Assembly (NCBI GenBank): GCA_044224905.1
Contig: JBGAJN010000001.1
Coordinates: 129,110 to 193,109 of the forward strand
Length of the DNA: 64,000 nucleotides
Direction: 5' to 3'
From: Limisphaerales bacterium
GTDB lineage: Bacteria; Verrucomicrobiota; Verrucomicrobiia; Limisphaerales; JBGAJN01
Below the pieces are notes generated by a model. The model saw only the letters and a list, made by a program, of their open reading frames with translations, was not told where the DNA came from and ran no database searches. A program made the position numbers and the translations under genes. Positions 24,427 to 62,095 of the stretch are shown one piece after another (the first letter of the stretch is position 1; each line of letters opens with the position of its first letter).

Positions 24427-24432
24427 CAACTC

Positions 24433-24606: not shown

Positions 24607-24610
24607 TTTT
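24565..24610 (+). terminator. Intrinsic terminator
   Basis: ACGGGCTCGT...ACGAGCCCGT followed by TTTTATTTT. Confidence 0.75.
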
Positions 24611-25284
24611 CTCCGACGAGTTTCGTTGTCGGCGATCAAGCGATTCAACTCAGCCAAAATCTTCTGGCACGTCTCCTCCACCGTCAGTCCGGCATTGTTG
24701 ATGATCCGCGCGCCCAACGGCACCATCAATGGCGCCGCCGCACGTTGGCTGTCGCGATGATCGCGTTCACGCAAATCCTCCACCTGTCCCTGACCAGCAC
24801 GCCGACGAGCCCGTTCCTCCGGCGGCGCATCAAGGAAGAATTTGTAATCCGTGTCCGGGAAGACATTCGTGCCGATGTCACGCCCCTCCATCACCAAGTT
24901 GCCAAAAGCTCGGCACTCACGCTGGGTATTTTTCATCCAACGGCGCACCGCCGGCACTGCCGCAACCTTCGAAGCGGCGGCTGAGATTTCTGGAGAACGA
25001 ATTTCTGCGACCGGATCGTGCCCGTCGACCAACAGACGCACCGCATTATCCACACACGTGAGCTTTGTTTTCCAACGTCGACAGGCTGCCCCGATCGCCC
25101 GCGCATCATTCACGTCCACACCTTTCCGCAGGCAGTGCCACGCCAGCGTGCGGTACATCGCTCCGGTGTCCACATAGAGAAACCCCAACTCCTTCGCCAA
25201 CGCACGCGCTGTGCTGCTTTTGCCACTCGCACCCGGACCGTCGATCGCGACGACGACGTGAGTGTGAGCCGGTTGGGACGACAT
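24604..25284 (-). CDS. cmk: Cytidylate kinase (canonical copy)
   Basis: AIDGPGASGKS, DTGAMYR, ASKVA, MEGRDIG, RDHRDSQRAAAPL. Confidence 0.92.
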   Translation of the reverse strand: MSSQPAHTHVVVAIDGPGASGKSSTARALAKELGFLYVDTGAMYRTLAWHCLRKGVDVNDARAIGAACRRWKTKLTCVDNAVRLLVDGHDPVAEIRSPEISAAASKVAAVPAVRRWMKNTQRECRAFGNLVMEGRDIGTNVFPDTDYKFFLDAPPEERARRRAGQGQVEDLRERDHRDSQRAAAPLMVPLGARIINNAGLTVEETCQKILAELNRLIADNETRRRK

Positions 25285-25363
25285 GTCGGAAGATTGCACG
25301 CGGCGAAGATTTTCTGTCAGCCGGAAACTCGTGGAAAAATCACTGACTAGAGTGCTGAGTTGC

Positions 25364-26047
25364 TCAAGCAAAGACATCTGGCGCGCGCTCGCGCAAGATT
25401 TTCAAAAGCTCCTGCAACGTGTCCTCAACCTTATGCTGCGAAGTATCGATGATTTCCGCATCTGCAGCGGGCAGGTTCAAATCCTTGTCCAACTCATCGC
25501 GACGCGCCTGGTCGCCTCCGTAGCCGGCCCGTTCAAGGCGACGATGCCGGATGGTTTCGTCTGCCGTGAGGAAAAATTTGAACGGCGTCTCTCGGAAAAT
25601 CCGCGTGCCGATGTCGCGCCCATCCATCACGAGGCTGCCAAACTCCGCGCAGCCGCGCTGGAACGGCAACATCCATTCGCGCACCGCTGGCACGTGCGAA
25701 ACGAGCGCAACTTTGTTCGCCACTTCGGGCGCACGCAATTCGGCCAGCGGCCGGTAACCATCCACGAGCACGCACAACTCTCCTTCAGTCGAGACCAGTT
25801 TTACCGGCCAGGAAGTGCAGGCTCGCGCGACCGCGGCGGACTGCTCGGCGGATAGATGATCCATTTTCTCTGCCGGAAAAACGCCCGTACGCAAGCAATA
25901 CCAAGTCAGGGCGCGATACATCACACCGGTGTCGACGTGCAGGAAGCCGACGCGACGCGCCAACTCGCGCGACACCGAGCCTTTGCCCGTGGCGCTAGGA
26001 CCGTCGATGGCGATGACGATGGGGGTTTTCAAGTTAACAGATGGCAA
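25364..26047 (-). CDS. cmk: Cytidylate kinase paralog (divergent)
   Basis: AIDGPSATGKG, DTGVMYR, MDGRDIG, KFFLTA; start uncertain (TTG). Confidence 0.85.
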   Translation of the reverse strand: MPSVNLKTPIVIAIDGPSATGKGSVSRELARRVGFLHVDTGVMYRALTWYCLRTGVFPAEKMDHLSAEQSAAVARACTSWPVKLVSTEGELCVLVDGYRPLAELRAPEVANKVALVSHVPAVREWMLPFQRGCAEFGSLVMDGRDIGTRIFRETPFKFFLTADETIRHRRLERAGYGGDQARRDELDKDLNLPAADAEIIDTSQHKVEDTLQELLKILRERAPDVFA

Positions 26048-29946: not shown

Positions 29947-30112
29947 GCCTTCTCGCTGCACACGCAACACTCTCTGAAGCGTTTCATCTCGAGGTCGCCT
30001 TCAGCCCGTAGTCAGGAAAAGCCCCTGCCTCAGGAACGCCCGCTCGATAAAAGAATTTGATTCAAATAACCCTTTGAGCTTTGGCGTCCGTTTTGATCTA
30101 ACAATCCACACC

Positions 30113-33100
30113 ATGATTCGCGTTATCTACCTTCTCACCGTTGTCACCCTGCTGCGCATCTCCACCGCCGACGCCGCGACACCCGAGTGGCTCTGGTTCC
30201 AGAAAACCTCCGGCACCGACATTCGTTACTTCCGCAAGACGTTCACGGTTGAAGGCCGTGTCTCCGCGGCAGAGCTCGTCGCCACAGCCGATGACAAATT
30301 GGAAGTCTTCCTCAACGGTGAGCGCGTGTTGCAGAACAGCGCGTGGCAAAGTCCCGCCAAAGCCGATCTCGCGACGAAACTTGTCGGCGGTCTGAACGTG
30401 CTCGCCGTTCGCGCGGAGAATCGTGGCAGCAGCGCGGCTGGAGCGCTGGCTCAACTGGAGATCACCTCGAACAAAGGCAAGACTACCATTGTCACGGACA
30501 CCTCGTGGAAAGCCTCCGCCAAGGAAGAAGCCGGTTGGAACAAAACCGCTTTTGCTGATTCTGCGTGGGCAGTGCCACAGTCGCTCGGAAAGCTCGGGAC
30601 CTCGCCGTGGGGCAATGTGCTTGCCGCGAACAAAGAATCTGGCTCTTCGAAGTCCGCCAAGGGTTCAAAGTCTGGCAAGCCTTCCCTCGCTGCCGCGAAG
30701 CGCGAAGCCACACCCGCCGAAGCGCTCTACACCTTGCCCGGTTTCAAGGTTGAGCTGATTCATTCGTCCGAAGGTGAAGAAGGTTCGTGGGTCGCGATGG
30801 TAAAGGACAACAAAGGTCGCCTCATCCTCAGCCCGCAACATGGCAAAGGCGGCGAGAGTGCTGGCGGTTTGCTGCGCCTCACGATCGGCGCGGACGGAAA
30901 AGTCGCGAAGCGCGAATTCATTGCGAAGCCGCTCTACGATGCTCAGGGGCTGGCTTTCGCGAATAACACGATTTACGCCGTCGTGAACAAATACTCCACG
31001 AGCTTCAAAAGCGGCCTCTACCGCATTCGCGACACGAGCGGCAATGACAAGTTCGAGGACATTCAGTTGCTGAAAGAAATTCCCGGTGGCGGCGAACACG
31101 GGCCACACGCGGTCGTCGTTGGTCCGGACGGAATGCTCTACGTCATGGCCGGCAATCACACCAAGCTCATCGAAGGCATCGACCCGAACTCGCCGCATAA
31201 GAATTATCAAGAGGATCACGTGCTTCCGCGTCAGTGGGACGCCAACGGTCACGCTGCTGGAATTCTCGCGCCGGGTGGCCACATTTACCGCGTCGATCCC
31301 GAAGGCAAGAAGTGGGAGCTGTATGTCGCGGGTTTCCGCAACCAATACGACTTTTCGTTCAACGCCGACGGCGAAATCTTTGTTTACGATTCCGACATGG
31401 AATGGGAATGGGGCACGCACTGGTATCGTCCTACGCGTGTGTATCATTGTCCGAGTGCCGCGGACGTTGGTTGGCGTTCTGGCTCGGCCAAGTGGCCCAG
31501 CTATTATCCAGACGCCACGCCGCCGATTCTTGATGTGGGTGTAGGCTGCCCCACGGGCACCGCGTTTGGTTACGGCGCAAAGTTCCCCGCGAAATACCAA
31601 CGGGCCTATTACATTCTCGATTGGACCTACGGACGCGTCATCGCGGTTCATCTCACGCCCAACGGCGCGACCTACAGTGCCACGATGGAAAACTTCGTCT
31701 GCCCGCTCGGGCTCGCGAAGCCGGGTGAAGAAAAGAAACCACTGAACGTCACCGACCTCGAAATCGGCAACGACGGCGCGATGTATTTCACGGTCGGCGG
31801 CCGCGGAGTTCAGTCCGGTTTGTATCGCGTGACCTACAACGGTGCGGAAAACACTTCGCCCGCTACCCTCACTGACACGGCCGGTGCCGACGCGCGGAAG
31901 CTTCGCCATCAGCTTGAAGCCTTCCACGGCAAACAGGACCCGAAAGCCGTCGACTTCGCCTGGCCTCATTTGAACAGCGAGGACCGCGCGATCCGTTACG
32001 CCGCACGCATCGCCATCGAGAGCCAACCGCTCGCGCAATGGGAATTTCGTGCGCTGGCCGAAAAGGAAGTCAACGCCGGGCTCACCGCGTTGCTCGCCCT
32101 CGCACGAGTTGGCGGCAAGGATGTTCAGGACGAATGCTTGAAAGCGCTCGCTAAGTGGCCTCTTGCGACTTTGAGCGAGGACAAACAATTGGACAAACTC
32201 CGCGTCATCGAAGTCAGCTTCGCCCGCAACGGCAAGCCTTCGCCGGAAGTTGCGCAGATGGGCATCGAGAAGCTCAGCGCGTTCTATCCCGCGAAAAGTT
32301 ACAACTTGAACCGTGAGCTGGTGCAGCTGCTCGTGTTCCTCGAAGCGCCGGGCGTTGTTGAAAAAACGCTCACTTTGCTGGACGCGGCACCGACGCAGGA
32401 GCAGCAGTTCGCCTATCTGTTCCATCTCCGCACGCTCGCAACCGGCTGGACCGCGGCGCAGCGCCAACACTACTTCACGGCGTTGAACAGTTACCCGAAC
32501 CCTTCGGCCAAGCACGAGGTGTTGACCGTGAAGTGGTTTACCGATGCGGGCCGCGACTACTCCGACGGCAACAGCTTCCGCAAGCAACTCGACAAAGTTC
32601 GCGACGACGCGATTGCGACACTGACTGACAGCGAAAAGACTCAACTCGCCAGCTTGATCTCCGTGCGCGCATCGGACGCTCCCGCCAAGAGCAAAACCGC
32701 ATTGCCGCAGCCCAAGACACGCGCCTTCGTGAAGGAGTGGAAGATGGCCGACTTCGCCGCCGACTTCGACAAGACCAAGAAGGGCCGCAACTACAACGCC
32801 GGTCGTCAGGCCTTCGTCGATGCGCAATGCGTCGCGTGTCACAAGATCGGCAACGACGGCGGCGGCGTAGGCCCCGAGCTCACCGCGATCGCCGCGCGTT
32901 TCAGCTCGCGCGATATTTTGGAATCGATCCTCGAACCATCGAAGGTCGTCTCCGAGCAGTTCAAGAACACCACCGTCGTGCTCAACAACGGTGACGACGT
33001 CACCGGCCGGCTCGTAGACGAAACGGCCGACAAGATCGTGCTGCAACCGAATCAACTCCTCCCGCAAAAGGTCGAGGCGAAGAAATCTGACATCAAGACG

Positions 33101-33253
33101 CGCAAGCTCTCCGATCTCTCGCCAATGCCCGAAGGTCTCGTCAGCGTCCTCTCCAAGGACGATCTGCTGGATCTCGTCGCATTCCTTGAAGCGGGCGGCC
33201 GCCGTGACGGGCGCGCCTTCGCGGATGGAGACAAGAAAGCGGCTAAGCGCTGA
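30113..33253 (+). CDS. PVC-type beta-propeller dehydrogenase-like / HEAT / cytochrome c protein with an N-terminal carbohydrate-binding-like domain
   Basis: Signal peptide; YFRKTF...ADD...FLNG domain; GEHGPH, GFRNQYD, DSDMEW, WYRPTR; CVACH heme site, GPELT, SPMPEGL. Confidence 0.85.
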   Translation: MIRVIYLLTVVTLLRISTADAATPEWLWFQKTSGTDIRYFRKTFTVEGRVSAAELVATADDKLEVFLNGERVLQNSAWQSPAKADLATKLVGGLNVLAVRAENRGSSAAGALAQLEITSNKGKTTIVTDTSWKASAKEEAGWNKTAFADSAWAVPQSLGKLGTSPWGNVLAANKESGSSKSAKGSKSGKPSLAAAKREATPAEALYTLPGFKVELIHSSEGEEGSWVAMVKDNKGRLILSPQHGKGGESAGGLLRLTIGADGKVAKREFIAKPLYDAQGLAFANNTIYAVVNKYSTSFKSGLYRIRDTSGNDKFEDIQLLKEIPGGGEHGPHAVVVGPDGMLYVMAGNHTKLIEGIDPNSPHKNYQEDHVLPRQWDANGHAAGILAPGGHIYRVDPEGKKWELYVAGFRNQYDFSFNADGEIFVYDSDMEWEWGTHWYRPTRVYHCPSAADVGWRSGSAKWPSYYPDATPPILDVGVGCPTGTAFGYGAKFPAKYQRAYYILDWTYGRVIAVHLTPNGATYSATMENFVCPLGLAKPGEEKKPLNVTDLEIGNDGAMYFTVGGRGVQSGLYRVTYNGAENTSPATLTDTAGADARKLRHQLEAFHGKQDPKAVDFAWPHLNSEDRAIRYAARIAIESQPLAQWEFRALAEKEVNAGLTALLALARVGGKDVQDECLKALAKWPLATLSEDKQLDKLRVIEVSFARNGKPSPEVAQMGIEKLSAFYPAKSYNLNRELVQLLVFLEAPGVVEKTLTLLDAAPTQEQQFAYLFHLRTLATGWTAAQRQHYFTALNSYPNPSAKHEVLTVKWFTDAGRDYSDGNSFRKQLDKVRDDAIATLTDSEKTQLASLISVRASDAPAKSKTALPQPKTRAFVKEWKMADFAADFDKTKKGRNYNAGRQAFVDAQCVACHKIGNDGGGVGPELTAIAARFSSRDILESILEPSKVVSEQFKNTTVVLNNGDDVTGRLVDETADKIVLQPNQLLPQKVEAKKSDIKTRKLSDLSPMPEGLVSVLSKDDLLDLVAFLEAGGRRDGRAFADGDKKAAKR

Positions 33254-33376: not shown

Positions 33377-35893
33377 ATGCGCCCGCTGTTGAAATTCCTC
33401 GCCCTGATCGTTGCGACATTTTGCGCTGCTAAGTTGTTCGCGCAGTCTCCAAAAAACTCCGCGACTCCGCCGCGCGATATTCAGGCACCGCCCGGATTCA
33501 AAGTAGAACTCCTCCATTCCGCTTTGCCCGACGAAGGTTCGTGGGTCTGCATGACCGTGGATGACAAGGGGCGCTTCATCATCGCGCCGCAGAATTTGAA
33601 CTTGCCCGAAGAAGGTTCGCTCTGGCGCGTCACGCTCGGCACGAATGGCCTCGTGCAAAAGTTCGAGCGCGTGCCGCTGCCGATCTACGAAGCGCAAGGC
33701 TTGCTCTACACCAACGGCGCGCTCTACGTCGTGGTGAATAAATACAAGGGCCAGTTCGACAGTGGCCTCTACCGGCTCACGGACACCGACGGCGACGACC
33801 AACTCGACAAGATCGAGCTGTTGAAAAAGATCGATGGCTCCGGCGAACACGGCCCGCACGCCGTCGTGGCAGGACCGGACAAGCAGCTCTACATCGTGTG
33901 CGGCAACGACACGCGTTTGCCCAAAGGCATCGCCGCCGATTCACCGCACAAGAATTTCGCCGACGATCAATTGCTCCCGCAACAAACCTGGCCCGCGAAC
34001 TACACATGGGCGAACAGCTGGCCACCCGGCAGCTTCGTCGTGCGCACGGATCTCGATGGCAAAAACTGGACGTTGCTCTGCGCCGGTTTGCGCAACGCTT
34101 ACGATGTCGCCTTCAATCGCGAGGGCGAAATGTTCACGTTTGACAGCGACATGGATTGGGATGAAGGCGCGCCGTGGTATCGCCCGACGCGCATTAGTCA
34201 TTTGGTCTCGGGCGGCGAATACGGCTGGCGGCGTGGCACCGGCAAGTGGCCCGACTATTATCCCGACAGCCTCCACAGCACGCTCGACATCGGACGCAGC
34301 TCGCCCACCGGTGTGAAGTTCGGCACGGGCGCGACGAACTTTCCGCCGCGTTTCCGTCGGCAAATGTTCATGTGCGATTGGGCTTTCGGCACGATCTACG
34401 CCGCGACGTTCACGCCGAGCGGGGCCAGTTACAAAGCGATCGCCGAACCATTTCTCACGGGTCGTCCGCTCAACGTCACCGATCTCGAATTCGGCGCGGA
34501 TGGCGGGATGTATTTCATCACCGGCGGGCGCGGCACGGCCTCGGGACTTTATCGCGTGACATACCAACAACCGATGACACGCGACCCGATCGATTGGAGC
34601 CTCGAGTTTCAACAAGGCGTGAAGGCGCGCAAACTTCGCCACGAACTCGAAACCTCCCACGGAAAGCACGATGCAAAAGCCGTCGACGTCGCGTGGCCAC
34701 ATCTCGATAGCGATGATCGCTCCCTGCGTTACGCCGCGCGCATCGCAATCGAGTGGCAGGACGTTTCGCTCTGGCAACGCCGTGCTCTCGACGAAACGCA
34801 CCCCACGGCTTCGATCCACGCGCTACTCGCGCTCGCCCGTTGTGGTGGCAAAGAAACTCAAGAGGGGCTCCTTCAGGCGCTCGGTCGATTGAAAGGAGCC
34901 GAACTAGACGAGGAGCAAACGCTCGATGCTCTGCGCGTGCTGAGCCTTTCATTCATCCGCCAAGGCAAGCCCAATGCCGATGGCTGCACCCGCATCGCGG
35001 CGTATTTGGATTCGCTGTATCCGACGAAGAGTGTTCGCGTGAATCGTGAGCTGTGCCAGTTGCTCGTCTACCTTGAAGCGCCGGGTGTCGTGGCGAAAAG
35101 CCTCGCGCTGCTCGCGGAGGCGCCCACGCAGGAGGAGCAGTTGCAATACGCGTTCCCGTTGCGGCTCATGCGCACGGGCTGGACGCCGGAGTTGCGCGAA
35201 AAATATTTCCGCTGGTTCCCGCAAACCGCGGCGAACTACAAGGGCAGCAGCAAGGTGCTCATCTTCCTCGCCGACACGCGACGCGATGCGATCACGACGT
35301 TGAGCGATGCGGAGAAGGCATCCCTGAAAACTATACTCGACGAAAAGCTGACGCCGGCGGCGCCGAGCGTGACGTTGAAGGCGCGACCGTTCGTGAAGGA
35401 ATGGAAGATGGACGATCTGCTCCCGTCATTGGACGAGGTCGGACGCGATCGATCCTTCGAACGCGGGCGAGAAATGTTCACCGCGGCGCAGTGCATCCTC
35501 TGCCATCGGTTCAGCAATCAGGGCGGCGCGATCGGCCCCGATCTCAGCTCCGTCGGGAGCCGCTTCAATCGCTACGACATTCTCGAAACCATGCTGCTGC
35601 CGTCGAAGGTCGTCTCAGATCAATTCCAGAACATGGTGTTCGTGAAGCAGGACGGCGACGACGTGACCGGCCGCGTGGTCGAGGAAAACGACGAGCGCGT
35701 CGTGATCCTCACGAACCCGCTTGCCGATACCCGCGTCACCGTGTCGAAGAGCGAGATCAAAGAGAAGCGCGTCTCGACGTTGTCACCGATGCCGGAAGGA
35801 TTGCTTAACGCTCTGACGCGTGACGAGATTCTCGATCTCATTGCGTATCTGGAGTCCGGTGGAAACGCGAATTACGCAGCGTTCAAGAAATAG
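33377..35893 (+). CDS. PVC-type heme-binding CxxCH protein, paralog of the upstream gene
   Basis: GEHGPH, GLRNAYD, DSDMDW, WYRPTR, CILCH, GPDLS, SPMPEGL. Confidence 0.85.
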   Translation: MRPLLKFLALIVATFCAAKLFAQSPKNSATPPRDIQAPPGFKVELLHSALPDEGSWVCMTVDDKGRFIIAPQNLNLPEEGSLWRVTLGTNGLVQKFERVPLPIYEAQGLLYTNGALYVVVNKYKGQFDSGLYRLTDTDGDDQLDKIELLKKIDGSGEHGPHAVVAGPDKQLYIVCGNDTRLPKGIAADSPHKNFADDQLLPQQTWPANYTWANSWPPGSFVVRTDLDGKNWTLLCAGLRNAYDVAFNREGEMFTFDSDMDWDEGAPWYRPTRISHLVSGGEYGWRRGTGKWPDYYPDSLHSTLDIGRSSPTGVKFGTGATNFPPRFRRQMFMCDWAFGTIYAATFTPSGASYKAIAEPFLTGRPLNVTDLEFGADGGMYFITGGRGTASGLYRVTYQQPMTRDPIDWSLEFQQGVKARKLRHELETSHGKHDAKAVDVAWPHLDSDDRSLRYAARIAIEWQDVSLWQRRALDETHPTASIHALLALARCGGKETQEGLLQALGRLKGAELDEEQTLDALRVLSLSFIRQGKPNADGCTRIAAYLDSLYPTKSVRVNRELCQLLVYLEAPGVVAKSLALLAEAPTQEEQLQYAFPLRLMRTGWTPELREKYFRWFPQTAANYKGSSKVLIFLADTRRDAITTLSDAEKASLKTILDEKLTPAAPSVTLKARPFVKEWKMDDLLPSLDEVGRDRSFERGREMFTAAQCILCHRFSNQGGAIGPDLSSVGSRFNRYDILETMLLPSKVVSDQFQNMVFVKQDGDDVTGRVVEENDERVVILTNPLADTRVTVSKSEIKEKRVSTLSPMPEGLLNALTRDEILDLIAYLESGGNANYAAFKK

Positions 35894-35952: not shown

Positions 35953-37494
35953 ATGAAGCGCATCACCCTCCTTTTCCTCGCCTTTGTCGCGTCGCTGGCT
36001 CACGCCGCGGACGCCAAGCGCCCGAACATTCTCTTCATCTACACCGACGATCATTCGTATCGCACGATCTCTTGCTACGAAGGCGCGGAACCGTGGGCGA
36101 AGACGCCGAACATGGACCGGCTCGCGTCTCGCGGCGTCCGTTTCACCCACGCTTACATCGGCACGTGGTGCATGCCTTCGCGCGCAACGATGCTCACGGG
36201 CTTGCATCAGTTCGGCGTGCAGACGATGCGCATGGAAGGGAAATATCCCGGCTGCGAATACGATCCGGCGAAGTGCAAATTTTGGCCCGCCGAGTTTCGC
36301 AAGCAGGGCTATCAGACCGCGCAAATTGGCAAGTGGCACACGGGAACCGACACGGGCTTCGGCCGCGACTGGGATTATCAAATCGTGTGGAACCGTCCGA
36401 AGTTCACCGAGAACGCGGGTAATTATTACTACAACCAGTTGCTTTGTTTCAACGGCGGTGAACCACAGCTCACGAAGGGTTACTCAACAGACAACTATAC
36501 CAAGTGGGCTGTTGACTACATCAAAGGTGAAAATCGTGATGCAGCGAAACCTTGGTATCTCTGGCTCTGCTATGGCGGTGTGCATTCGCCCTACACGCCT
36601 GCTGACCGGCATATGAATGACTACGCTGGTGCGAAGGTTCCCACGCCCGCGGACATCTACCCACCGCGCCCCGGAAAGCCTGATTACATGCAGAAGATCA
36701 ACACGTGGGCGCCGGGCCCGAACGGCGAACCGGTCCTGCGCAAGAGCGCCAAAGGCCAGGAAGTCGGCGATGACGAAAAGGCCGGGCAAGGTCGCACGCT
36801 CAGCGATTGGGTCCGTCAATACAATCAAGCCGTGCGTTCGCTCGACGAAGGCATTGGCAAAGTGATCGCCGCACTCGAGGAATCGGGCCAGTTGAAAAAA
36901 ACGCTCGTCATCTTCACCTCGGATCAAGGTTTCGCGTGGGGCCAGCACGGGTTCCGTCACAAGCTCGCGCCGTACGATGCGAACATTCGTTCGCCGCTTG
37001 TCATCTCAATGCCGGGCACAATTCCCGAGGGGAAGGTCTGTCGCGCGCCTGTCGGTGGCGTGGACTTGGTGCCGACGATTCACAGTTTTGCCGGTCTTAA
37101 GCAGCCGTGGGCAATGCACGGGCACGATCTCTCGCCGTTACTGAAGAATCCGGACAGCAAATGGCCGCACGCGACGATGCTGCCCTTCACGGGCGATTTC
37201 TTTGGCGCGGACACCGATCACGTGCCAACGGACAAGCATCTCTATCATAACGGCGTCGCGTGGTATGTGCTACTGACCGAGGGCCGCTTCAAATACGTGC
37301 GCACGCTCGTGGCGAACGAAATCGAAGAACTCTACGATCTCCAGGCTGATCCTGAAGAACTCACCAACCTCGCGCTTAAGCCCGAACACGCGGCGACGTT
37401 GAAGAAATTCCATGACGCGACGGTGGCGGAACTGAAGCGCACCCACGCCGGAATGGTGGACCATCTTCCGCCGGTGCGGACGGCTTCACGCTAA
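35953..37494 (+). CDS. Secreted formylglycine-dependent sulfatase
   Basis: RPNILFIYTDD, CMPSRATMLTG (CxPxR), GKWH, FTSDQG, ELYDL..DP.E..NL. Confidence 0.93.
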   Translation: MKRITLLFLAFVASLAHAADAKRPNILFIYTDDHSYRTISCYEGAEPWAKTPNMDRLASRGVRFTHAYIGTWCMPSRATMLTGLHQFGVQTMRMEGKYPGCEYDPAKCKFWPAEFRKQGYQTAQIGKWHTGTDTGFGRDWDYQIVWNRPKFTENAGNYYYNQLLCFNGGEPQLTKGYSTDNYTKWAVDYIKGENRDAAKPWYLWLCYGGVHSPYTPADRHMNDYAGAKVPTPADIYPPRPGKPDYMQKINTWAPGPNGEPVLRKSAKGQEVGDDEKAGQGRTLSDWVRQYNQAVRSLDEGIGKVIAALEESGQLKKTLVIFTSDQGFAWGQHGFRHKLAPYDANIRSPLVISMPGTIPEGKVCRAPVGGVDLVPTIHSFAGLKQPWAMHGHDLSPLLKNPDSKWPHATMLPFTGDFFGADTDHVPTDKHLYHNGVAWYVLLTEGRFKYVRTLVANEIEELYDLQADPEELTNLALKPEHAATLKKFHDATVAELKRTHAGMVDHLPPVRTASR

Positions 37495-53979: not shown

Positions 53980-54441
53980 TCACGCCTTCCCGCCGAAGCT
54001 CACGTAGTCATCGAGATCGAGCACGTCGAACCAGGTCGTCAGATCTTCACGAGTCTTCGAGAGGTTCGTGACGTACTTGGCAAAGTACTGCCAAGTTTCG
54101 GCGTCGCTGTCGGGGCCGCGCCGTTCCTGATACGCGGACCACTGCTGGATCTCCCACGGCGCGCGCTGGTGCTTCGCGTGGGCACTAACCCAGGCGAGAA
54201 TCTCTTCGTCGCCTTTGCCCTTCTTCAATTCAGCCAGCAACTTCTTTGGATCGATGCCGGTGAACTGGACGAATCGCTGATCGAGCGGGCAGTTGTAGTG
54301 ATACTCCCCGTTTTTCCCGAGCAGCGTGGCCCGCCCCTTGTCCAGCATGCGTGGCAGAAGAACGTAGCCGCCGAGCCGAACGCGTGTGCTGCGTGGCGGG
54401 CGTTGAGTGAGATCGGTGGGTGGAATTTTTGAGGTGCTCAT
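53980..54441 (-). CDS. DUF5069-like protein
   Basis: DL..RPPRS..LGG...LPRMLDKGRA...GEYHYNCPLD...F..FTGI. Confidence 0.75.
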   Translation of the reverse strand: MSTSKIPPTDLTQRPPRSTRVRLGGYVLLPRMLDKGRATLLGKNGEYHYNCPLDQRFVQFTGIDPKKLLAELKKGKGDEEILAWVSAHAKHQRAPWEIQQWSAYQERRGPDSDAETWQYFAKYVTNLSKTREDLTTWFDVLDLDDYVSFGGKA

Positions 54442-54461
54442 AGGTATTTTGTTTTTCCGTT

Positions 54462-57400
54462 TTATTTGCCGGAGGAATTCTTGGCCGCGAGCGGTGCGAG
54501 TTGCCCGTTGTCCCAACCGCCGCCGATCGCCTTAATGAGTTGCACGGCAGTGATCAACCGTTGACCCGCGATCTGCGCCGCGCCGCGTTCGTTCGCCAAG
54601 GCGGTGCGTTCGCTTTCCACCACTTCGAGGTAGCTCACGAATCCCGCGTCGTAACGCGTGCGCGAAAGCTTCGCGACCTTTTGTGATGCCGCGACGGCGC
54701 GTGCCTGCGCCGCCGCTTGCTCGGTCAGCAAGCGCGACGCCGTGAGGGCGTTCTGCGTCTCCTGAAACGCGACCAAGATGCGCTGACGATAGTTCGCCAC
54801 GCTTTCGTCCCACGTCGCTTGCGCGCGGCGGAGGTTCGCCTTGTTGCGACCGCCTTGGAAAATCGGCAGCGTGATGCTCGGGCCAATGCTCCACACGCGG
54901 CTCTGCCAGTTGAACAACGTCTCCACGTCGGCGCTCTCCCAACCGGCGACGCCGGTGATCCGCACGATCGGGAAAAACGCGGCCTTCGCGACGCCGATGC
55001 GCGCATTGTTCGCAGCGAGCAACCGTTCCGCCTCCGCGATGTCGGGGCGACGTTCGAGCAATTCGCCCGGCAGACCAGCGGGAATCAAGGGTGGCGCGGC
55101 ATCGAACGGGAGCGGGTTTTCCGTCACGTCGAACTCACTCGCCGCCGCGCCCACGACCACCGCGAGGGCGTTCTTCAATTCGCTCCGCCGCCGCTCCACG
55201 CCCACGACTTCGGTGGCAATGGTCGCGAGTTCGGTCTCGGCGCGCGCGAGTTCGAGCTCGCTGGCCGTGCCGCTTTTAGCGCGGGACTCGATGATCTTGA
55301 GCGCCTCGCGTCGCAAGGCAACCGTGCGGGTCAGCGTGGCGCGCTCCGCATCCAGCGCGCGGAGCGAGAAATAATTCTGGGCGACGTCCGCATGCATCAT
55401 GAGCCGCACGGTCTCAAACGCGGCGATCTTCGCATCGGCTTCGCGCGTCGATGCCTCGAACGAACGCCGCACGCGCCCCCACAGATCGAGTTCGTAGTTG
55501 AGATCGAACGGCACGCGAATGTTGCCAACTTCAGTGATGGGAAACGCCAAACCCGCGTTGGGTGAATAGCGCTGGCGGCTGTAGTTCGGATCGAGCGTAA
55601 TGTTGGGGAAATAATCCGCCTTCGCCTGCCGCGAGTTCGCACGCGCCTGTTCGATGCGCGCCGCTGCGGCTCGCAAGTCCTGGTTGTTGGCCAGTGCGCG
55701 AAGCTGAAGCTGATTCAGCGTTTCGTCGTTGAAGACTTTCCACCATTCACCGCGTGGGAGCGCATCGGCGGGACGGCCTTCTTTCCACGCGCCGGCGTTG
55801 GTGTCACTGAAGGACGAGGGGATCGCATTGGTGGGGCGTTGATAGTTCGGGCCGACGGCGGCGTTCAACGTGAGGGCCGAGGCGAGCAGCAACACCACCA
55901 CGGTTCCGGCCACGCCGTGAGAGCCGAGCGGTGGCGTTTGGGGCTTCGGTTCCGTCGCGGACTTTTTCTTCCAACCCAGCTTCATCAGCACCACGTAGAA
56001 CACCGGCGTGAGGAACAATCCGAACACCGTCACGCCAATCATGCCGGCGAACACGGCGACGCCCATTGCGCGGCGCATTTCCGCGCCGGCGCCTGTGGAG
56101 ACGACGAGCGGGAACACGCCCGCGATGAACGCGATACTCGTCATCAAGATGGGCCGCAAGCGCAAGCGCGCCGCTTCGATGGCCGCCTGCATCGGTTCCA
56201 TGCCTTCGTCCTGTTTGTGTTTGGCGAACTCCACAATAAGGATCGCGTTCTTGCACGCGAGGCCGACGAGCACGATGAGACCGATCTGCGTGAAGATGTT
56301 GTTGTCGCCGCCGCTGAGCCATACCCCGGCGATCGCGAAGAGCAGACACATCGGCACGATGAGGATGATCGCGATCGGCAATCGCAGGCTCTCGTATTGC
56401 GCGGCAAGCACGAGGAACACGAGCAGGATGCACAGCGGGTAAATGTAAACCGCCGAATTGCCCGCGAGGATGCGTTGATACGTGAGATCGGTCCATTCGA
56501 ACGCCATGCCCTTCGGCAGATTTTCCTGCGCGAGTTTGGCGATCAACGCCTCGGCCTGACCTGAACTGTAACCAGGCGCGGGGCCGCCGTTGATTTCCGC
56601 GGCGGGATAACCGTTGTAACGCATCGCGCGATCGGGCCCGTAGGCTTCCTTCACTTTCACGAGCGCGCCGAGCGGCACCATCTGGCCTTTGGCGTTGCGC
56701 GTCTTGAGGCGCGTGATGTCTTCCGGGCGTTCGCGAAATTGCGCGTCGGCCTGCGCGACGACCTGATAGGTGCGGCCGAAGCGGTTAAAGTCATTCACGT
56801 AGAGCGAGCCGAGATAGACCTGCATCGTCTCGAAAAGATTTTGCAACGGCACGCCCTGCGTCTTGGCCTTCACACGATCGATGTCGAGATCGAGTTGCGG
56901 GACGTTGACCGTGAACGTGGAGAACACGCCGCCGAGTCCCGGCGTCTGGTAACTCTTTCCGATGATCCCTTGCAGATTCTGGAACAACGCGTCGTAGCCG
57001 AGATCGGCGCGGTCCTCGACGAAGAGTTTGAATCCGCCAATCGTGCCGAGTCCATTCACCGGTGGCGGCATCACCGCGAGCACGAACGCATCCTGAATCG
57101 CGCCGAACTCCTGATTGAGCGCGGCGGCGATGGCGGGCCCACTGAGGTTCGCGCCATGCCGTTGGTCGAATGGTTTGAGGCCGAAGAACACGATTCCGGC
57201 ATTGGGCGCGACGCTGAAGCCGCTGATGCTCAAGCCGGGAAACGCGATGGCGTCCTGCACGCCCGGATGCTTGAGTCCGATTTCCGACATGCGCCGGATG
57301 ACGGCCTCAGAACGATCGAGGGACGACGCGTCGGGCAATTGCGCGAAGGCGACGAGGTATTGCTTGTCCTGAGTGGGCACGAAGCCAGTGGGGACTTTGT

Positions 57401-59093
57401 TGAAACTCCAGCCCGTGAGGCAAACCAGGCCGACGTAAAGGACGAGCGCGATGACGCTCTTGCGAATCGTGCTTGCAACGCCGGCGGAATATTTTTTGCC
57501 AGACCATTCGAAGAGACGATTGAACGGCCGGAAGAACCAGCCGAACATTTTGTCCATCGTGCGCCACAACCAGTCCTTCGGTGCGTGGTGATCTTTCAAG
57601 AGCACGGCGCTCAACGCGGGTGACAAGGTCAGCGAATTGAATGCCGAGATCACGGTCGAGATCGCGATGGTGATCGCGAACTGTTTGTAGAACTGGCCGG
57701 TCAATCCGCTGATGAACGCCGTCGGGATGAACACCGCGCAGAGCACGAGCGCCGTAGCGATGATGGGGCCGGTCACTTCGTTCATCGCACGCTTCGTGGC
57801 GTCCACGGCGGACAGGCCGAGCGCGATGTTGCGTTCCACGTTTTCGACGACGACGATCGCGTCGTCCACGACGATGCCGATGGCGAGCACGAGGCCGAAT
57901 AGCGAGAGCGCGTTGATACTGAAACCAAACGCGTGCATCACGGCGAACGTGCCAACGAGCGACACCGGAACCGCCGCGAGCGGAATGATCGACGCGCGCC
58001 ACGTCTGGAGGAACAGGATGACCACGATGACGACCAGCAGGACGGCTTCGAAGAGCGTCGTGACAACCGCCTTGATGGAGTTGCGCACGAAGACGGTTGG
58101 GTCATAGACCACCGAGTAGTCGATGCCTTCGGGGAAATTTTTCTTCACTTCCTCCATCGCGTGACGAACGTCGTCGGAGAGTTGAATGGCGTTGGCGCCG
58201 GGTGATTGAAAGATCGGGAGCGCGACGGCCCGACGATTGTTTAGCAACGAACGTAGCGAATAGCCGGAAGCTCCGAGCTCCAGGCGGGCGACGTCTTTGA
58301 GCAGCGTCTTCTCTCCGCGTTCGCCGGTCTTGACGATGATCTGGCCGAACTCGCCTTCGTCGATCAATCGGCCCTTGGCGTTAATCTGGAGTTCGTAATC
58401 GACCGGCCGACCGACGGGCTGGCGACCAATTCCGCCGGCGGCGACTTGCACGTTCTGTTCGCGAATGGCGTTGATGACGTCGCTCGCGGTGAGGCCTTTA
58501 GCGGCGACTTTGTTCGGATCGAGCCATACGCGCATGGCGTAATCGCCGGAGCCGAAGAGTTGCACGGAGCCCACGCCGGGAATGCGCGCGAGCACGTCCT
58601 TCACCTGCAAGCTGGCGTAGTTGCGGACGTAGATTTCGTCGTAGCGATCGTTCGGCGAGAACAAGTGCACGACCATCGTGAGATCAGGCGATTGCTTCGT
58701 CGTCGTGACGCCGAGGCGGCGAACTTCTTCCGGCAATTTCGGCAACGCCTGTGAGACGCGGTTCTGCACTTGGACCTGCGCCTTGTCGATGTCGGTGCCG
58801 AGTTTGAACGTCACGGTGAGCGTCATCACGCCATCGCTCGTGGCCTGCGAGAACATGTAGAGCGAGTTCTCGACGCCGTTGACCGCCTGTTCGAGCGGCG
58901 CGGCAACGGTCTCGGCGATCGTCTTGGGATTCGCGCCCGGATACGTCGCCATCACGACGATCGTGGGCGGGACGACTTCTGGATATTCGCTGATGGGCAA
59001 TCGCCACATGGCGATGAAGCCGATCAGGAAAATCAGGATCGACAGCACGCCGGCGAAGATCGGGCGTTTGATGAAGAAGTGGGAAAAGTTCAT
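54462..59093 (-). CDS. RND (HAE1, MexF-like) efflux permease fused to a NodT/OprM-type outer membrane factor
   Basis: aa 1-~1040: FFIKRPIFA, IGIVVDDAIVVVENV, KNAILIVEFA, RLRPILMT. aa ~1080-1543: VGPNY.RP, WWKVF.D, YELDLWG, LLERRPDI, KAIGGGW. One uninterrupted frame. Confidence 0.92.
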   Translation of the reverse strand: MNFSHFFIKRPIFAGVLSILIFLIGFIAMWRLPISEYPEVVPPTIVVMATYPGANPKTIAETVAAPLEQAVNGVENSLYMFSQATSDGVMTLTVTFKLGTDIDKAQVQVQNRVSQALPKLPEEVRRLGVTTTKQSPDLTMVVHLFSPNDRYDEIYVRNYASLQVKDVLARIPGVGSVQLFGSGDYAMRVWLDPNKVAAKGLTASDVINAIREQNVQVAAGGIGRQPVGRPVDYELQINAKGRLIDEGEFGQIIVKTGERGEKTLLKDVARLELGASGYSLRSLLNNRRAVALPIFQSPGANAIQLSDDVRHAMEEVKKNFPEGIDYSVVYDPTVFVRNSIKAVVTTLFEAVLLVVIVVILFLQTWRASIIPLAAVPVSLVGTFAVMHAFGFSINALSLFGLVLAIGIVVDDAIVVVENVERNIALGLSAVDATKRAMNEVTGPIIATALVLCAVFIPTAFISGLTGQFYKQFAITIAISTVISAFNSLTLSPALSAVLLKDHHAPKDWLWRTMDKMFGWFFRPFNRLFEWSGKKYSAGVASTIRKSVIALVLYVGLVCLTGWSFNKVPTGFVPTQDKQYLVAFAQLPDASSLDRSEAVIRRMSEIGLKHPGVQDAIAFPGLSISGFSVAPNAGIVFFGLKPFDQRHGANLSGPAIAAALNQEFGAIQDAFVLAVMPPPVNGLGTIGGFKLFVEDRADLGYDALFQNLQGIIGKSYQTPGLGGVFSTFTVNVPQLDLDIDRVKAKTQGVPLQNLFETMQVYLGSLYVNDFNRFGRTYQVVAQADAQFRERPEDITRLKTRNAKGQMVPLGALVKVKEAYGPDRAMRYNGYPAAEINGGPAPGYSSGQAEALIAKLAQENLPKGMAFEWTDLTYQRILAGNSAVYIYPLCILLVFLVLAAQYESLRLPIAIILIVPMCLLFAIAGVWLSGGDNNIFTQIGLIVLVGLACKNAILIVEFAKHKQDEGMEPMQAAIEAARLRLRPILMTSIAFIAGVFPLVVSTGAGAEMRRAMGVAVFAGMIGVTVFGLFLTPVFYVVLMKLGWKKKSATEPKPQTPPLGSHGVAGTVVVLLLASALTLNAAVGPNYQRPTNAIPSSFSDTNAGAWKEGRPADALPRGEWWKVFNDETLNQLQLRALANNQDLRAAAARIEQARANSRQAKADYFPNITLDPNYSRQRYSPNAGLAFPITEVGNIRVPFDLNYELDLWGRVRRSFEASTREADAKIAAFETVRLMMHADVAQNYFSLRALDAERATLTRTVALRREALKIIESRAKSGTASELELARAETELATIATEVVGVERRRSELKNALAVVVGAAASEFDVTENPLPFDAAPPLIPAGLPGELLERRPDIAEAERLLAANNARIGVAKAAFFPIVRITGVAGWESADVETLFNWQSRVWSIGPSITLPIFQGGRNKANLRRAQATWDESVANYRQRILVAFQETQNALTASRLLTEQAAAQARAVAASQKVAKLSRTRYDAGFVSYLEVVESERTALANERGAAQIAGQRLITAVQLIKAIGGGWDNGQLAPLAAKNSSGK

Positions 59094-59150: not shown

Positions 59151-60341
59151 TTATTTCTTGGCGACTTTCGTTTCGCTTTCGGCGGCGGCGACTTCCTTCT
59201 GCGGCGTCACGGGCATACCGGGACGAACGCGCTGGAGGCCGTTGACGACAACTTGTTCGCCGGGTTGCAAGCCTTCGCGAATCACGCGCTTGCCTTCAAC
59301 CACGGGGCCGATTTTCACCGGACGATATTCGACCGTGTTCGTCGCGGAGAGCGTGAGCACGAACTTCTGGCTTTGATCGGTGCCGATGGCGCGGTCGCTG
59401 ACGAGCAACGTGGGCTTGCGCTCGCTACCCGGGACGCGCACCCGCGCGAAGAGTCCGGGGAGCAAACGGCCGTCGCGATTCGGAAACACGGTGCGCAAGA
59501 GAATGCTTCCCGTGGCTGGATCGAGACGGTTGTCGAAGGATTCGATGAAGCCCTGATGGGGAAAGCCATCCTCGTCGGCCAAACCCATTTCGACCGCAAC
59601 GCGACCGTCGCCGTTCGTGATCTTCTCCTGCAGATGTTGGAACTTCAGCAGTGTCGCCTCGTCGACATCCGCGTAAGCGTAAATCGGATCGACGGAAACA
59701 ATCGTCGTCAGCACGGTGTTCATGCCGGGACCGCCGCTGATGTAATTGCCGACGGTCATCCACGCACGACTGACGCGGCCGTCGATCGGCGCGCGAACCT
59801 CGGTAAATTCCAGGTCGAGTTTCGCGGTGTCGTTTGCCGCTTTCGCCGCAGCCAGACCGCCACGGGCTTCGGAGAGCTTGGAGTTGCGTTGCTCCGATTC
59901 CTCGATGGAGATCGCCTTTTCCAACAGCAATTCCTTCGCGCGATTAGCTTCGCGTTCGGCAGTGTTCAGCTTCGACTGCGCACGCACGAGCTCGGCGGCA
60001 GTGCGATCAAACTCGGCTTGATGCCAGCGAGGATCGATCACGAAGAGCACGTCGCCCTTCTTGACGAGCTGGCCGGACTGGAAACGAACTTCGCGAATAT
60101 GCCCACTCACCCGTGGGCGTACTTCGACCGTTTCCACGGCGTCGAGACGGCCGGTGAATTCGTTGTATTCCACAAGCTCACGTTGCTCAACGGGTGCGAC
60201 GGTGACAGCGGGTGGCGGGGGCATCGGGGCAACGGCGTGCGGCTTGCAACCGCCCGCGATCAAAGCTGCGGAAGCCGCCGCGAGGATGAATATCGGTTTC
60301 ATGGTGGTGAAGATTTTTGAGATGGCGGCGGTGCAACTCAT
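59151..60341 (-). CDS. RND periplasmic adaptor (MFP) lipoprotein
   Basis: Lipobox IAGGC, VRPRVSG, GQLVKKGD.LF.ID, RAPIDG, PGLF. ATG 60341 forms an ATGA overlap with the upstream stop (alternative start 60302). Confidence 0.93.
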   Translation of the reverse strand: MSCTAAISKIFTTMKPIFILAAASAALIAGGCKPHAVAPMPPPPAVTVAPVEQRELVEYNEFTGRLDAVETVEVRPRVSGHIREVRFQSGQLVKKGDVLFVIDPRWHQAEFDRTAAELVRAQSKLNTAEREANRAKELLLEKAISIEESEQRNSKLSEARGGLAAAKAANDTAKLDLEFTEVRAPIDGRVSRAWMTVGNYISGGPGMNTVLTTIVSVDPIYAYADVDEATLLKFQHLQEKITNGDGRVAVEMGLADEDGFPHQGFIESFDNRLDPATGSILLRTVFPNRDGRLLPGLFARVRVPGSERKPTLLVSDRAIGTDQSQKFVLTLSATNTVEYRPVKIGPVVEGKRVIREGLQPGEQVVVNGLQRVRPGMPVTPQKEVAAAESETKVAKK

Positions 60342-60991
60342 TCTACGCGGCTGATCACTTGCTCGGCGGGGAACCGAACTTTGGCCATGCCGGCATACTT
60401 GTCATCCGCAGCGCGGTAACCGGCAGGGCAGGCGGCGACGGTTGCGTAGCCTTCTTTGTCGAGGCCGAGAATCTCGTCATAACGCGCGGGCTCGAGGCCT
60501 TCCATCGGGCAGGCGTCGATTCCCAGCAATGCGGCTCCAGCCATAAACTGGCCGAGCGCGATGTAAACCTGACGCGTCGCCCATGCGTTCGCGTCCAGTT
60601 CGGGATTCGCAAGAAAGCCGAGCAGCATGTTCTTGAAACCGTCGAGTGATTCCATCGGGACGTTGCGCACCTCCACTATGCGTTTCATGTAGCGCTCAAC
60701 ATCGGCCGCACCCAGCCCGCGCTTGACGGCGAACACAACGAGGTGCGAGGCGTCGGCGACCTGACGTTGGTTCCAGGAAACGGGCACCAACTTTTCGCGA
60801 ATGGCGGGATTGCTGACGACGATGAAGCGCCACGGTTGCAAACCGAAGGACGATGGCGCGAGCACCAGCGTCTCTTCCAAAGCCCGCCAAGTGGCCGCAG
60901 GAATCTTCTTGGCGGGATCGAACTTCTTCGTGGCGCAGCGCCAGCGGAGTTGGGTAAGGAGCGTTTCAGCGGGAATCGGATGCGTTGTCAT
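60338..60991 (-). CDS. NAD(P)H nitroreductase (NfsB-like)
   Basis: WRCATKKFD, APSSFGLQPW, GIDACPMEG, GYR, KVR. Confidence 0.92.
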   Translation of the reverse strand: MTTHPIPAETLLTQLRWRCATKKFDPAKKIPAATWRALEETLVLAPSSFGLQPWRFIVVSNPAIREKLVPVSWNQRQVADASHLVVFAVKRGLGAADVERYMKRIVEVRNVPMESLDGFKNMLLGFLANPELDANAWATRQVYIALGQFMAGAALLGIDACPMEGLEPARYDEILGLDKEGYATVAACPAGYRAADDKYAGMAKVRFPAEQVISRVE

Positions 60992-61037
60992 GGTCAGTTT
61001 CAGGTTCAAGTTTTGAATGTTTCAGTGGGGACAGTCT

Positions 61038-61426: not shown

Positions 61427-62095
61427 TTAAAGTAACCAAACCGATTCCCCCAGCGGGGCAGTTGATTGCTCGGTTGCGACTACTTTAGCCGCGACGACTT
61501 CCGCCCGGGCGCCAATCACGCGCATGATAGCTGGCTCAATGTCGCGAAGAATCTCCACGTCGTTCAGAATTTTGGCCAAGAATAAGAAACCGAGCAGGCA
61601 CGCCGACAAATTGCGTGCGGCCACGGCGGCATCGCTGATATCGATCAGCCCTTCGCGTTGAGCGTCGATCAGGGCGGACTCGATATACTTGCAGTTGCGC
61701 AAAAAGATCTCCTGAGCTTTACCGCGAAGCTTCTCTTCTTGGGCGCAGATTTCCGAGCCCACCGATCCAAATGGACAACCCAGCACGTGCCCGCACTTGT
61801 TCGCCATCGCCTTTTGGTCTTCGTAAATGAACCGACAAAGCTGCGAGATCCGCTCCAGCGGCGGCACCTGCGGCGAGAAGATGCGGTCGTAGCCCGAACG
61901 CTTCTGTTGCCAGAATTCCTCGTACGCCTCCAACGCCAGATCGACCTTGGACGGGAAGAAATGGTAAAAACTTCCTTTGTTTACGCCCGCGCGCTCGCAG
62001 ATCTGATCCACACTGACGCCGTTGTAGCTGTTGTTCCAAATCAGCTCAAAGGCGATGGCGAGGAGCTTCTCTTTTGCGTCGCTAGTTCTTCCCAT
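61427..62095 (-). CDS. TetR/AcrR family regulator (NemR-like)
   Basis: HTH SVDQICERAGVNKGSFYHFFPSK; C-terminal GCPFGS; several Cys. Confidence 0.92.
   Translation of the reverse strand: MGRTSDAKEKLLAIAFELIWNNSYNGVSVDQICERAGVNKGSFYHFFPSKVDLALEAYEEFWQQKRSGYDRIFSPQVPPLERISQLCRFIYEDQKAMANKCGHVLGCPFGSVGSEICAQEEKLRGKAQEIFLRNCKYIESALIDAQREGLIDISDAAVAARNLSACLLGFLFLAKILNDVEILRDIEPAIMRVIGARAEVVAAKVVATEQSTAPLGESVWLL

Follow-up and report, generated by a model that had tools for sequence, protein, structure and literature searches.

We analysed 64,000 nucleotides (hereafter the window) of contig JBGAJN010000001.1 (assembly GCA_044224905.1, positions 129,110 to 193,109) of a Limisphaerales bacterium belonging to the Verrucomicrobiota. 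On its minus strand, a single open reading frame (ORF; 54462..59093) with an ATG start encodes an efflux permease of the resistance-nodulation-division (RND) type and, in the same frame, an outer-membrane channel (outer-membrane factor, OMF). The precursor of 1543 aa and 167.6 kDa was delimited by the ORF list, its translation, and Pfam and NCBIfam matches. The gene probably encodes a membrane polyprotein of a tripartite efflux system of the MexEF-OprN/OqxAB type. We consider it likely that signal peptidase I would cut the fused chain into a 13-helix pump (116.7 kDa) and a non-lipidated channel (50.8 kDa). Tripartite efflux pumps are textbook three-gene machines, and their outer channel is usually seen as separately made and often shared. 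Apart from the unusual, conserved manner in which two of its components are made, the tripartite RND system described here is ordinary.

Two complete domains in one reading frame

The RND permease domain occupied aa 3-1036 (55986..59087; all parts of the gene lie on the minus strand), with transmembrane helix 12 (TM12) as its last helix. It was of the HAE1 type and OqxB/MexF-like according to the ACR_tran, RND_permease_1, TIGR00915 and PDB matches. Pfam ACR_tran covered aa 3-1036 with 1175 bits (profile positions 1-1020 of 1021), and NCBIfam RND_permease_1 (NF000282) covered aa 4-1037 with 1460.4 bits (cut-off 1250; profile positions 1-1028 of 1029). TIGR00915 gave 1168.2 bits, which was above its cut-off of 940, and the exception-type OqxB model NF000037 gave 1463.1 bits, under the required 2200. 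The best PDB matches (8yr0_A, 7wlv_A, 8zxs_A, and 7cz9_A) ran over the full length of this half at 1393-1501 bits. The proton relay of HAE1 pumps consists of Asp-Asp, Lys and Arg in TM4, TM10 and TM11 (D407, D408, K940 and R971 in AcrB). By motif match, rather than by residue-level alignment to AcrB, the permease half contained VVDDAIVV (from aa 408), ACKNAIL (from aa 946), and RLRPILMTS (from aa 978).

The predicted mature OMF (aa 1079-1543, 465 aa, 50.8 kDa; 54465..55859) is followed by the stop codon of the fused ORF at 54462-54464, and it was NodT/OprN/OprJ/OprM-like by TIGR01845, PDB and Foldseek comparisons. Besides ACR_tran, Pfam found two OEP stretches in the ORF, and the outer_NodT model TIGR01845 matched aa 1074-1526 (profile positions 5-460 of 460; 401.7 bits, cut-off 210.05). 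Among PDB sequences, OprJ (3.8e-65), CusC, OprM, and OprN were matched with E-values of 1e-58 to 1e-65. For aa 1001-1543, 42 aligned sequences were used to obtain an AlphaFold2 model (mean predicted local distance difference test score, pLDDT, 81.7; predicted template-modelling score 0.72), in which the OMF part was confidently folded. Foldseek placed this part with OprN, OprJ, OprM, and CusC at target-normalised template-modelling scores of 0.83-0.87, the best named structures being OprN 5azo/5azp (0.85-0.87). Both halves are complete, because the Pfam and NCBIfam matches were full-length and above the family cut-offs, and the OMF half was conserved throughout, barrel strands included. The whole chain contains five Cys residues (452, 558, 888, 916, and 947), none of them within or after the linker between the two halves, and the OMF has no lipobox with the invariant Cys at the first mature residue. 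No second OEP gene was found among the 37 further window ORFs scanned.

Anatomy and origin of the linker

The linker of 42 aa comprises a Lys/Pro-rich tail, a hydrophobic helix of 15-16 residues, and a small-residue end, LNA↓A, where the arrow marks the proposed cut. The cytoplasmic tail (aa 1037-1059; 55917..55985) consists of MKLGWKKK, with the three Lys residues at aa 1042-1044, and a Pro-rich spacer; its assignment draws on split relatives, low hydropathy, and coil in the AlphaFold model. The hydrophobic stretch GVAGTVVVLLLASALTLNAA spans aa 1060-1079 (nt 55857-55916), and VGPNYQRP begins at aa 1080. These positions, the ATG at 55985 (M1037), and the lack of Cys had been given in the original prediction, and all of them proved exact when recomputed. 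Within the stretch, the putative internal signal-peptide remnant covers aa 1060-1078 (55860..55916), with a core from V1061 to L1076 and the end T-L-N-A, as judged from hydropathy, the model helix, the alignment to 9j3d_A, and the register of its end. Hydropathy peaked at 2.3 in the hydrophobic stretch and was low in the tail. In the model, the TM12 helix reached aa 1038, followed by coil (aa 1039-1061) and a 15-residue helix (aa 1062-1076); the pLDDT of aa 1040-1062 was below 50.

Relatives in which pump and channel are separate genes account for both parts of the linker. Their RND genes end in the same MKLGWKKK-Pro-rich tail, as in locus L078 (..VMKLGWKKKPVPAPQSEPVKNV before the stop codon), the Prosthecobacter-type locus L016 (..LVMKLGRKKKPEAAAELPAAAIPTPH before the stop codon), and also L076. 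The first part of the linker thus appears to be the original C-terminal tail of the RND protein. The OMF genes of split relatives begin with M-K/R and a hydrophobic run that closes with a lipobox or an A-x-A-type end: L078 starts with MRILLLLTTSVLLAAC↓AVGPDY, which has a lipobox, and L016 with MRTLLFLILASSALAQ↓IGPNY, which has no Cys. The second part of the linker seems to correspond to the signal peptide that the OMF once had, now continuous with the RND tail in one frame. In the HMMER alignment with the OprJ-like precursor 9j3d_A, VLLLASALTLNAA of the window lay opposite the signal peptide LLPLAIAALAGCS, with A1078 on the lipid-bearing Cys and V1080 on mature OprJ residue 3. The segment has the hydrophobic core of about 7-16 residues and the small residues at -1 and -3 that characterise signal peptides, A1078 being at -1 and L1076, tolerated there but not optimal, at -3. 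A hydrophobic helix of 15-16 residues is typical of a cleaved signal peptide and not of a stable anchor.

Alternatively, the functional OMF could be translated from an internal start, at ATG 55985 (M1037) or another in-frame codon, with the read-through fusion as a tolerated by-product; such an OMF would have a signal peptide with a long n-region (MKLGWKKK...). M1037 was conserved in most family members, and protein P0426 (506 aa, an efflux outer-membrane subunit at NCBI, with a Methylomirabilota metagenome-assembled genome (MAG) as its label) is annotated from the equivalent Met (MRLGWKK..). However, M1037 belongs to the RND tail and the split RND genes carry the same tail, so that it is an RND residue and not a relic OMF start. 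No conserved in-frame start was found between KKK and the hydrophobic core in the window and six fused loci, and L003 and L004 have no start there at all. In the absence of a stop codon, no ribosome can translate the pump without also producing the fused chain, which must be processed or wasted anyway. Moreover, the frame was kept in 126 of 126 family sequences, for which an independent start has no need. Internal initiation is therefore an unlikely source of the channel. The missing Shine-Dalgarno sequence upstream of M1037 is uninformative, because such motifs are nearly absent in the window: GGAG, GAGG or AGGA lay at -18 to -4 in only 1 of 34 window gene starts, the start being taken as the first start codon of each ORF, which may be wrong for some.

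Two side observations concern the same region. The source organism seems to make little use of Shine-Dalgarno sites, and in P0426 either the upstream RND part was broken in the contig or the annotator picked an internal start. Ahead of the core (window aa 1053-1063, nt 55905-55937), most members of the fused family have a G-P-A-L-G-S-A-G-A-like motif, which takes the form P-L-G-S-H-G-V-A-G in the window. It was better conserved than expected for a mere spacer, and it was absent from the C-terminal tails of the split RND genes examined.

The fused family and its linker end

The OMF half was searched against proteins of 848-2701 aa, and 673 of 8000 scored candidates matched at E<=1e-3. Both PF00873 and PF02321 were present in all 120 long homologues listed, 106 of which had at least 1380 aa. 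Named members included Pedosphaera parvula Ellin514, Pedosphaera sp., and Verrucomicrobia/Verrucomicrobiales MAGs, and the JGI name for them is 'HAE1 family protein/NodT family OMF'. For the linkers, these 120 proteins and six locus ORFs gave a set of 126 sequences with 118 distinct linkers. All 126 ran from TM12 (..TPVFY) through a linker of 43-55 residues to VGPxY. The original prediction had proposed an evolved fusion and a search for the ACR_tran + OEP architecture and linker conservation; the fused homologues found bear this out, and homologues are not always split.

The closest fused copy (protein P0002, locus L001) came from an independent Verrucomicrobiota MAG, was 78-80% identical, and had the identical in-frame junction. 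This bears on whether the fusion is an artefact, arising from faulty sequencing or assembly or from a stop codon lost recently in what is now a pseudogene. One of 80 surveyed loci, L038, does look like such an artefact. For the window, however, the same in-frame junction recurs in that independent MAG and, across several data sources, in over 100 diverged homologues, and both halves are intact and conserved, which makes an artefact extremely improbable.

The locus survey kept 80 of 117 relatives and used patterns from the window protein alone, so it under-samples fused relatives and no frequency can be derived from it; six real fusions were among the 80 loci kept. L038 (Syntrophaceae MAG, L038:1-3492) was rejected as a fusion. 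Its junction is an out-of-frame MdtB/C-like RND tail as in L070, its RND match ended at query residue 951, and a frameshifted MAG sequence is the probable cause; for the trees, the locus was labelled split. Pedosphaera-type fused genes of the lipobox class also occurred on two short MAG contigs, L006 (2784 bp; bin label Akkermansia sp.) and L008 (3044 bp; bin label Candidatus Limnocylindria). Both grouped with other Verrucomicrobiota on the tree, and their bin labels are probably wrong.

An L-x-G-C lipobox stood just before VGP in 17 of the 118 distinct linkers, and the other 101 had no Cys. Counted backwards from the V of VGP, these 101 linkers had S or P at position -8 (79/101), A at -7 (74/101), a variable residue such as K, Q or R at -6, A at -5 (84/101), and G at -4 (81/101). 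The consensus end was [S/P]-A-x-A↓G, in which the Ala residues at -7 and -5 occupy the -3 and -1 places of the proposed cut, and the shorter x-x-A↓A-VGP form of the window was found in 13 of 101. By its pattern, this consensus appears to be the classical helix breaker-A-x-A↓G end of a signal peptidase I substrate, and the linker end seems to be under selection for a peptidase site. Only 0-4 residues separated the hydrophobic segment from the first conserved OMF residues.

The chain might also be cut by another protease, or elsewhere than between A1078 and A1079, for example after A1079, or in the Pro-rich spacer with later trimming. NAA↓V is formally a possible small-residue site, and the exact position was placed by comparing patterns. 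However, Asn at -3 is disfavoured for signal peptidase I, the family alignment holds small residues two and four places before +1 in one register, and the spacer lies in the cytoplasm, out of reach of signal peptidases. We therefore regard another enzyme or site as unlikely, and cleavage by signal peptidase I after A1078 as the probable event.

Stand-alone relatives and the history of the fusion

The same OMF region was also searched against shorter proteins, and the best 120 matches were sorted. Of these, 81 were true stand-alone OMFs, which begin with Met and have no more than 45 aa of presequence, and 30 were fragments of fused proteins; P0385, P0388, P0412, P0423, and P0427 are fragments that begin inside TM12. 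The remaining nine stayed outside the fused/split count: four had no VGP motif or no complete OMF and were left out of the tree, and five were in the tree unlabelled. The 81 stand-alone OMFs were 57-65% identical to the OMF half of the window, which is as close as most fused relatives. Signal peptides of those without a lipobox ended in ..NLFAA before VGPNY or in ..ARAS or ..IQAS before VGPDY. The closest stand-alone OMFs, which share the starred clade of the window on the tree (see below), had ordinary N-terminal signal peptides with ..ARAS, ..IQAS or ..SHAA before VGP, in the register of LNAA before VGP in the window. LNA↓A was thus in register with the A-x-A↓S/A-VGP ends of the closest stand-alone OMFs, as well as with the lipobox Cys of solved OMF precursors. 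This lends indirect support to the earlier view that the hydrophobic stretch is a signal-peptide remnant.

Another part of that view did not hold. The original prediction took OMFs to be normally C-x-VGP lipoproteins and the lost lipobox to be a mark of an evolved fusion. In the lineage of the window this is not so: 68-69 of the 81 close stand-alone OMFs had no lipobox, nor had the split Prosthecobacter-type relatives. Because stand-alone relatives also lack the Cys, while 17 of 118 family linkers and 43 of 43 divergent fusions (see below) keep it, lipobox loss and fusion are independent. On this comparison, the family of the window appears unusual in that the lipobox was exchanged for an A-x-A end.

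Trees were built with FastTree from the OMF domain alone and had many weak nodes. In the tree of 308 OMF domains, the window fell in a starred clade of 17 rows (nine fused and eight stand-alone), and the fused/split label needed seven changes, at least five of which were forced by starred branches. With the divergent fusions included, a separate tree (203 rows) required nine changes, at least six of them forced. The fused/split state is thus labile; the trees do not give the order of events. Repeated interchange is expected if both arrangements give the same mature proteins, as they would when the chain is cut.

Proposed processing of the fused chain

From these comparisons we infer the export of the channel, the cleavage and its exact site, and the fate of both products as follows. 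The 12-helix RND permease would be inserted into the inner membrane during translation. After the Lys/Pro-rich cytoplasmic tail, the short hydrophobic segment, that is, the signal peptide of a formerly downstream OMF gene, would enter the membrane N-in/C-out as a 13th helix and drive the Sec-dependent export of the 465-aa OMF. Signal peptidase I would then cut LNA(1078)↓A(1079)VGPNY. The released non-lipidated OMF (about 51 kDa) would insert in the outer membrane and trimerise, and the pump (about 117 kDa) would retain the uncleaved signal peptide as its C-terminal 13th helix. With the adaptor encoded just upstream, the parts may form an ordinary tripartite pump.

The topology of RND proteins suits such a route. 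Their C-terminus is cytoplasmic, and thus the next hydrophobic segment inserts N-in/C-out, which indirectly supports the export-capable topology that the original prediction had assigned to the remnant. RND pumps already send two loops, each about 300 residues long, through Sec, so a third large exported domain is mechanistically ordinary. Since the cytoplasmic RND C-terminus matches the N-in signal peptide of the channel, the fusion should arise and revert easily. That one pump chain is made per channel chain, as had been claimed, follows for synthesis from the single ORF; assembled tripartite pumps have a 3:6:3 make-up.

If the chain stayed uncut, the OMF would be tethered to the inner membrane through helix 13, either as a permanently attached periplasmic duct or in an inactive state. 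In favour of this, cleavage was deduced from comparison, the Leu at -3 is not optimal, and stable partner fusions do exist in the RND superfamily, such as SecDF of Thermus (passages of PMC8277102). On the other hand, only the 0-4 residues mentioned above lie between the helix and the OMF, whose N-terminus aligns with the outer-membrane end of solved structures. In solved OMFs the N-terminal end sits at the outer membrane, and with no spacer after the helix the beta-barrel of an uncut chain could not reach it. A conserved A-x-A or lipobox end would be purposeless in an uncut anchor, and the OMF half is conserved end to end, including its barrel strands. An uncut chain is accordingly a distinctly improbable outcome, and we keep to the processed polyprotein.

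Several points nevertheless weigh against processing by signal peptidase I. When a fusion arises simply because a stop codon is lost, the signal peptide stays in place by default. Its presence in single sequences proves nothing, and the signal-peptide evidence lies in conservation within diverged fused families. A strict A-x-A occurred in the last ten linker residues of 76 of 101 linkers versus 43 of 101 in the preceding Ala-rich ten; the bare count is therefore only moderately specific, and the argument rests on the fixed register of the motif. In the window itself, -3 is Leu (L1076) where the family mostly has Ala, and the site is weaker than most. The segment begins at aa 1060 rather than at an N-terminus, and no basic n-region adjoins the core: K1042-1044 and K1050 lie 10-19 residues ahead of it, K1050 being the nearest at 10 residues, unlike a normal n-region. 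The weak nodes of the trees belong here too. For the lipobox-type relatives, we know of no demonstrated case in which Lgt and LspA act on an internal lipobox.

Fusions in other lineages

When 1.84 billion representative proteins were scanned with aa 900-1250 as the query and without a profile, 55,812 matched at E<=1e-3, and the best 150 of these included 11 further full-length fusions with 30-46% identity. The divergent fusions were named as the P0236 family (Caldimicrobium sp. MAGs), P0284 (Bryobacteraceae MAG), and P0296 (Acidobacteriota MAG), and NCBI calls them only 'multidrug efflux RND transporter permease subunit'. A search seeded with P0236 found 43 proteins at E<=1e-3, the query included, and 32 of the 42 others had ACR_tran + OEP. 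All 43 divergent fusions examined had a hydrophobic run and a Cys 17-43 residues past the RND end; the Cys stood in a loose lipobox pattern in 39 and in x-[Y/H/Q]-G-C in four. Like the window, the divergent fusions run from RND TM12 through a basic patch and a hydrophobic run with a peptidase-type end to the OMF. In contrast to the window, they retain the Cys of a signal peptidase II-type site, and their linkers are shorter (17-43 aa). Their positions on the tree, interspersed with split OMFs of other phyla, mark them as independent fusions. In the ESM Atlas, 21 of the 30 nearest clusters had ACR_tran + OEP, including CusA/CzcA-type clusters of 56 and 348 members. The RND-OMF architecture is recurrent and has gone unremarked in databases. 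Since the genes are named only 'RND permease' or only 'OMF lipoprotein', surveys that count by name miss the pump or the channel half.

A C-terminal OEP was also observed in cellulose-synthase-type proteins (GT2 + PilZ, about 1132-1142 aa; P0299, P0302-P0307, and P0310), one of which came from Variovorax sp. OAS795. There, the OEP was preceded by a hydrophobic run and a ..VSGC, ..TTGC or ..LGGC lipobox. By sequence, they appear to be another inner-membrane machine fused to an outer-membrane channel via an internal lipoprotein signal peptide.

Taken together, a general and undescribed route of envelope biogenesis may exist, in which one chain comprises an inner-membrane machine and its outer-membrane channel until signal peptidase I or II severs them at a signal peptide inside the chain. 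HAE1 RND pumps of several subfamilies, CusA/CzcA-type pumps, and cellulose synthases would be among such machines, and the uncut helix 13 may have a role like that of AcrZ on AcrB. We offer this as a tentative proposal, somewhat short of probable. A conserved natural polyprotein of pump and channel would in itself be new in three respects. One chain would supply two different membranes, which is rare in bacteria; nature would offer a system in which to study how signal peptidases I and II treat internal signal peptides after a 12-helix protein; and the co-expression of pump and channel would be fixed at one chain each. The question of cleavage is directly testable, because a cultured carrier exists in Pedosphaera parvula Ellin514 (P0028).

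Gene neighbourhood in the window

All pump-associated genes lie on the minus strand. Upstream of the fused gene, the periplasmic adaptor or membrane fusion protein (59151..60341) was MexE/OqxA-like according to TIGR01730 and Pfam HlyD_D23. It scored 274.7 bits with TIGR01730 RND_mfp (cut-off 94.9), 394 bits with the MexE model, and 318 bits with the OqxA model, the latter two each under their own cut-off. As the OqxB, MexE, and OqxA models all stayed below their cut-offs, the window proteins are relatives and not orthologues of these components. An adaptor gene also preceded the RND gene in L002, L003, L012, L016, L029, L076, and L078.

A TetR-family regulator gene (61427..62095; Pfam TetR_N and TetR_C_13) lies upstream of the pump genes and is probably their local repressor. 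A TetR homologue was also found upstream of the adaptor gene in the fused loci L002 and L003 and the split loci L012, L016, and L029. Between the regulator and the adaptor lies a nitroreductase-family gene (60338..61009; Pfam Nitroreductase 1.3e-24), whose product scored 136.8 bits with NCBIfam PRK11053, below the cut-off of 227. No nitroreductase homologue was found between the TetR and adaptor genes in the 11 loci searched; only L029 had one near the pump, about 3.7 kb downstream of the OMF gene. The end of the gene in the window overlaps the start of the adaptor gene by 4 nt, which suggests co-expression of reductase and pump, perhaps for nitroaromatic or quinone-type compounds. Just past the pump genes, a DUF5069 ORF (53980-54516, minus strand) shares 55 nt with the end of the fused ORF if its first TTG is taken as the start; the true start is probably further downstream.

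The remainder of the window is ordinary chromosome, dnaA included. The dnaA gene (21743-23125, minus strand; domains Bac_DnaA, DnaA_N, and DnaA_C) is followed by about 1.5 kb (23126-24603) with one small ORF, and the window probably adjoins the chromosomal replication origin. Next to this gene-poor region are tandem genes of the cytidylate-kinase family (24604-25377 and 25364-26047, both minus strand; Pfam 7e-58 and 5e-40), which overlap by 14 nt. On the plus strand, two large proteins of 1059 and 838 aa (30074-33253 and 33377-35893), each with a weak cytochrome-c motif match only, adjoin a sulfatase (35953-37494). Such clusters of large cytochrome-c-motif proteins beside a sulfatase are typical of Planctomycetota and Verrucomicrobiota genomes.

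Comparison with known systems

No description of a natural RND-OMF fusion was found in the literature searched, a search that subscription journals, TCDB, and InterPro lay outside. The passages on fused proteins and polyproteins in a 2021 review in Chem Rev (PMC8277102) mention no such fusion. What these pages do offer is SecDF of Thermus thermophilus (passages of PMC8277102). In this fusion, as in the window protein, two partners of one machine form one chain within the RND superfamily. Unlike the proposed window chain, SecDF is uncut and both of its halves stay in the same membrane.

The nearest known systems are the HAE1 systems of the MexEF-OprN (Pseudomonas aeruginosa) and OqxAB type, with which the window shares the gene order of regulator, adaptor, RND, and OMF. 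The adaptor scored best on the MexE and OqxA models, the RND half on OqxB and RND_permease_1, and the OMF fold was closest to OprN, OprJ, and OprM. In contrast to these systems, RND and OMF form one ORF in the window, and the OMF has no lipobox Cys. The regulator is also of another kind, being TetR-type in the window, whereas MexT of MexEF-OprN is LysR-type.

As a non-lipidated channel, the window OMF has a textbook counterpart in TolC of E. coli, and close ones in the stand-alone non-lipoprotein OMFs of Verrucomicrobiota (P0313-P0318, P0322-P0334, and the Prosthecobacter-type L012-L028). The latter share the 57-65% identity to the OMF half and have signal-peptide ends of the form A-x-A↓S/A-VGP or ALA↓Q-IGP, without Cys and in the same register. 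They differ from the window in being separate genes with their own Met and a short basic n-region.

The closest precedent for the proposed processing is said to be FbcH, the cytochrome b-c1 polyprotein of Bradyrhizobium japonicum, which Thony-Meyer and co-workers reportedly described in about 1989-1991 as being split at an internal signal peptide. There too, a polytopic inner-membrane protein reportedly continues into an internal signal peptide, after which comes another subunit of its complex that is exported, and the processing was ascribed to signal peptidase. FbcH reportedly differs in belonging to another complex and in that both products stay at the inner membrane, whereas the second product of the window gene would have to cross the periplasm to the outer membrane.

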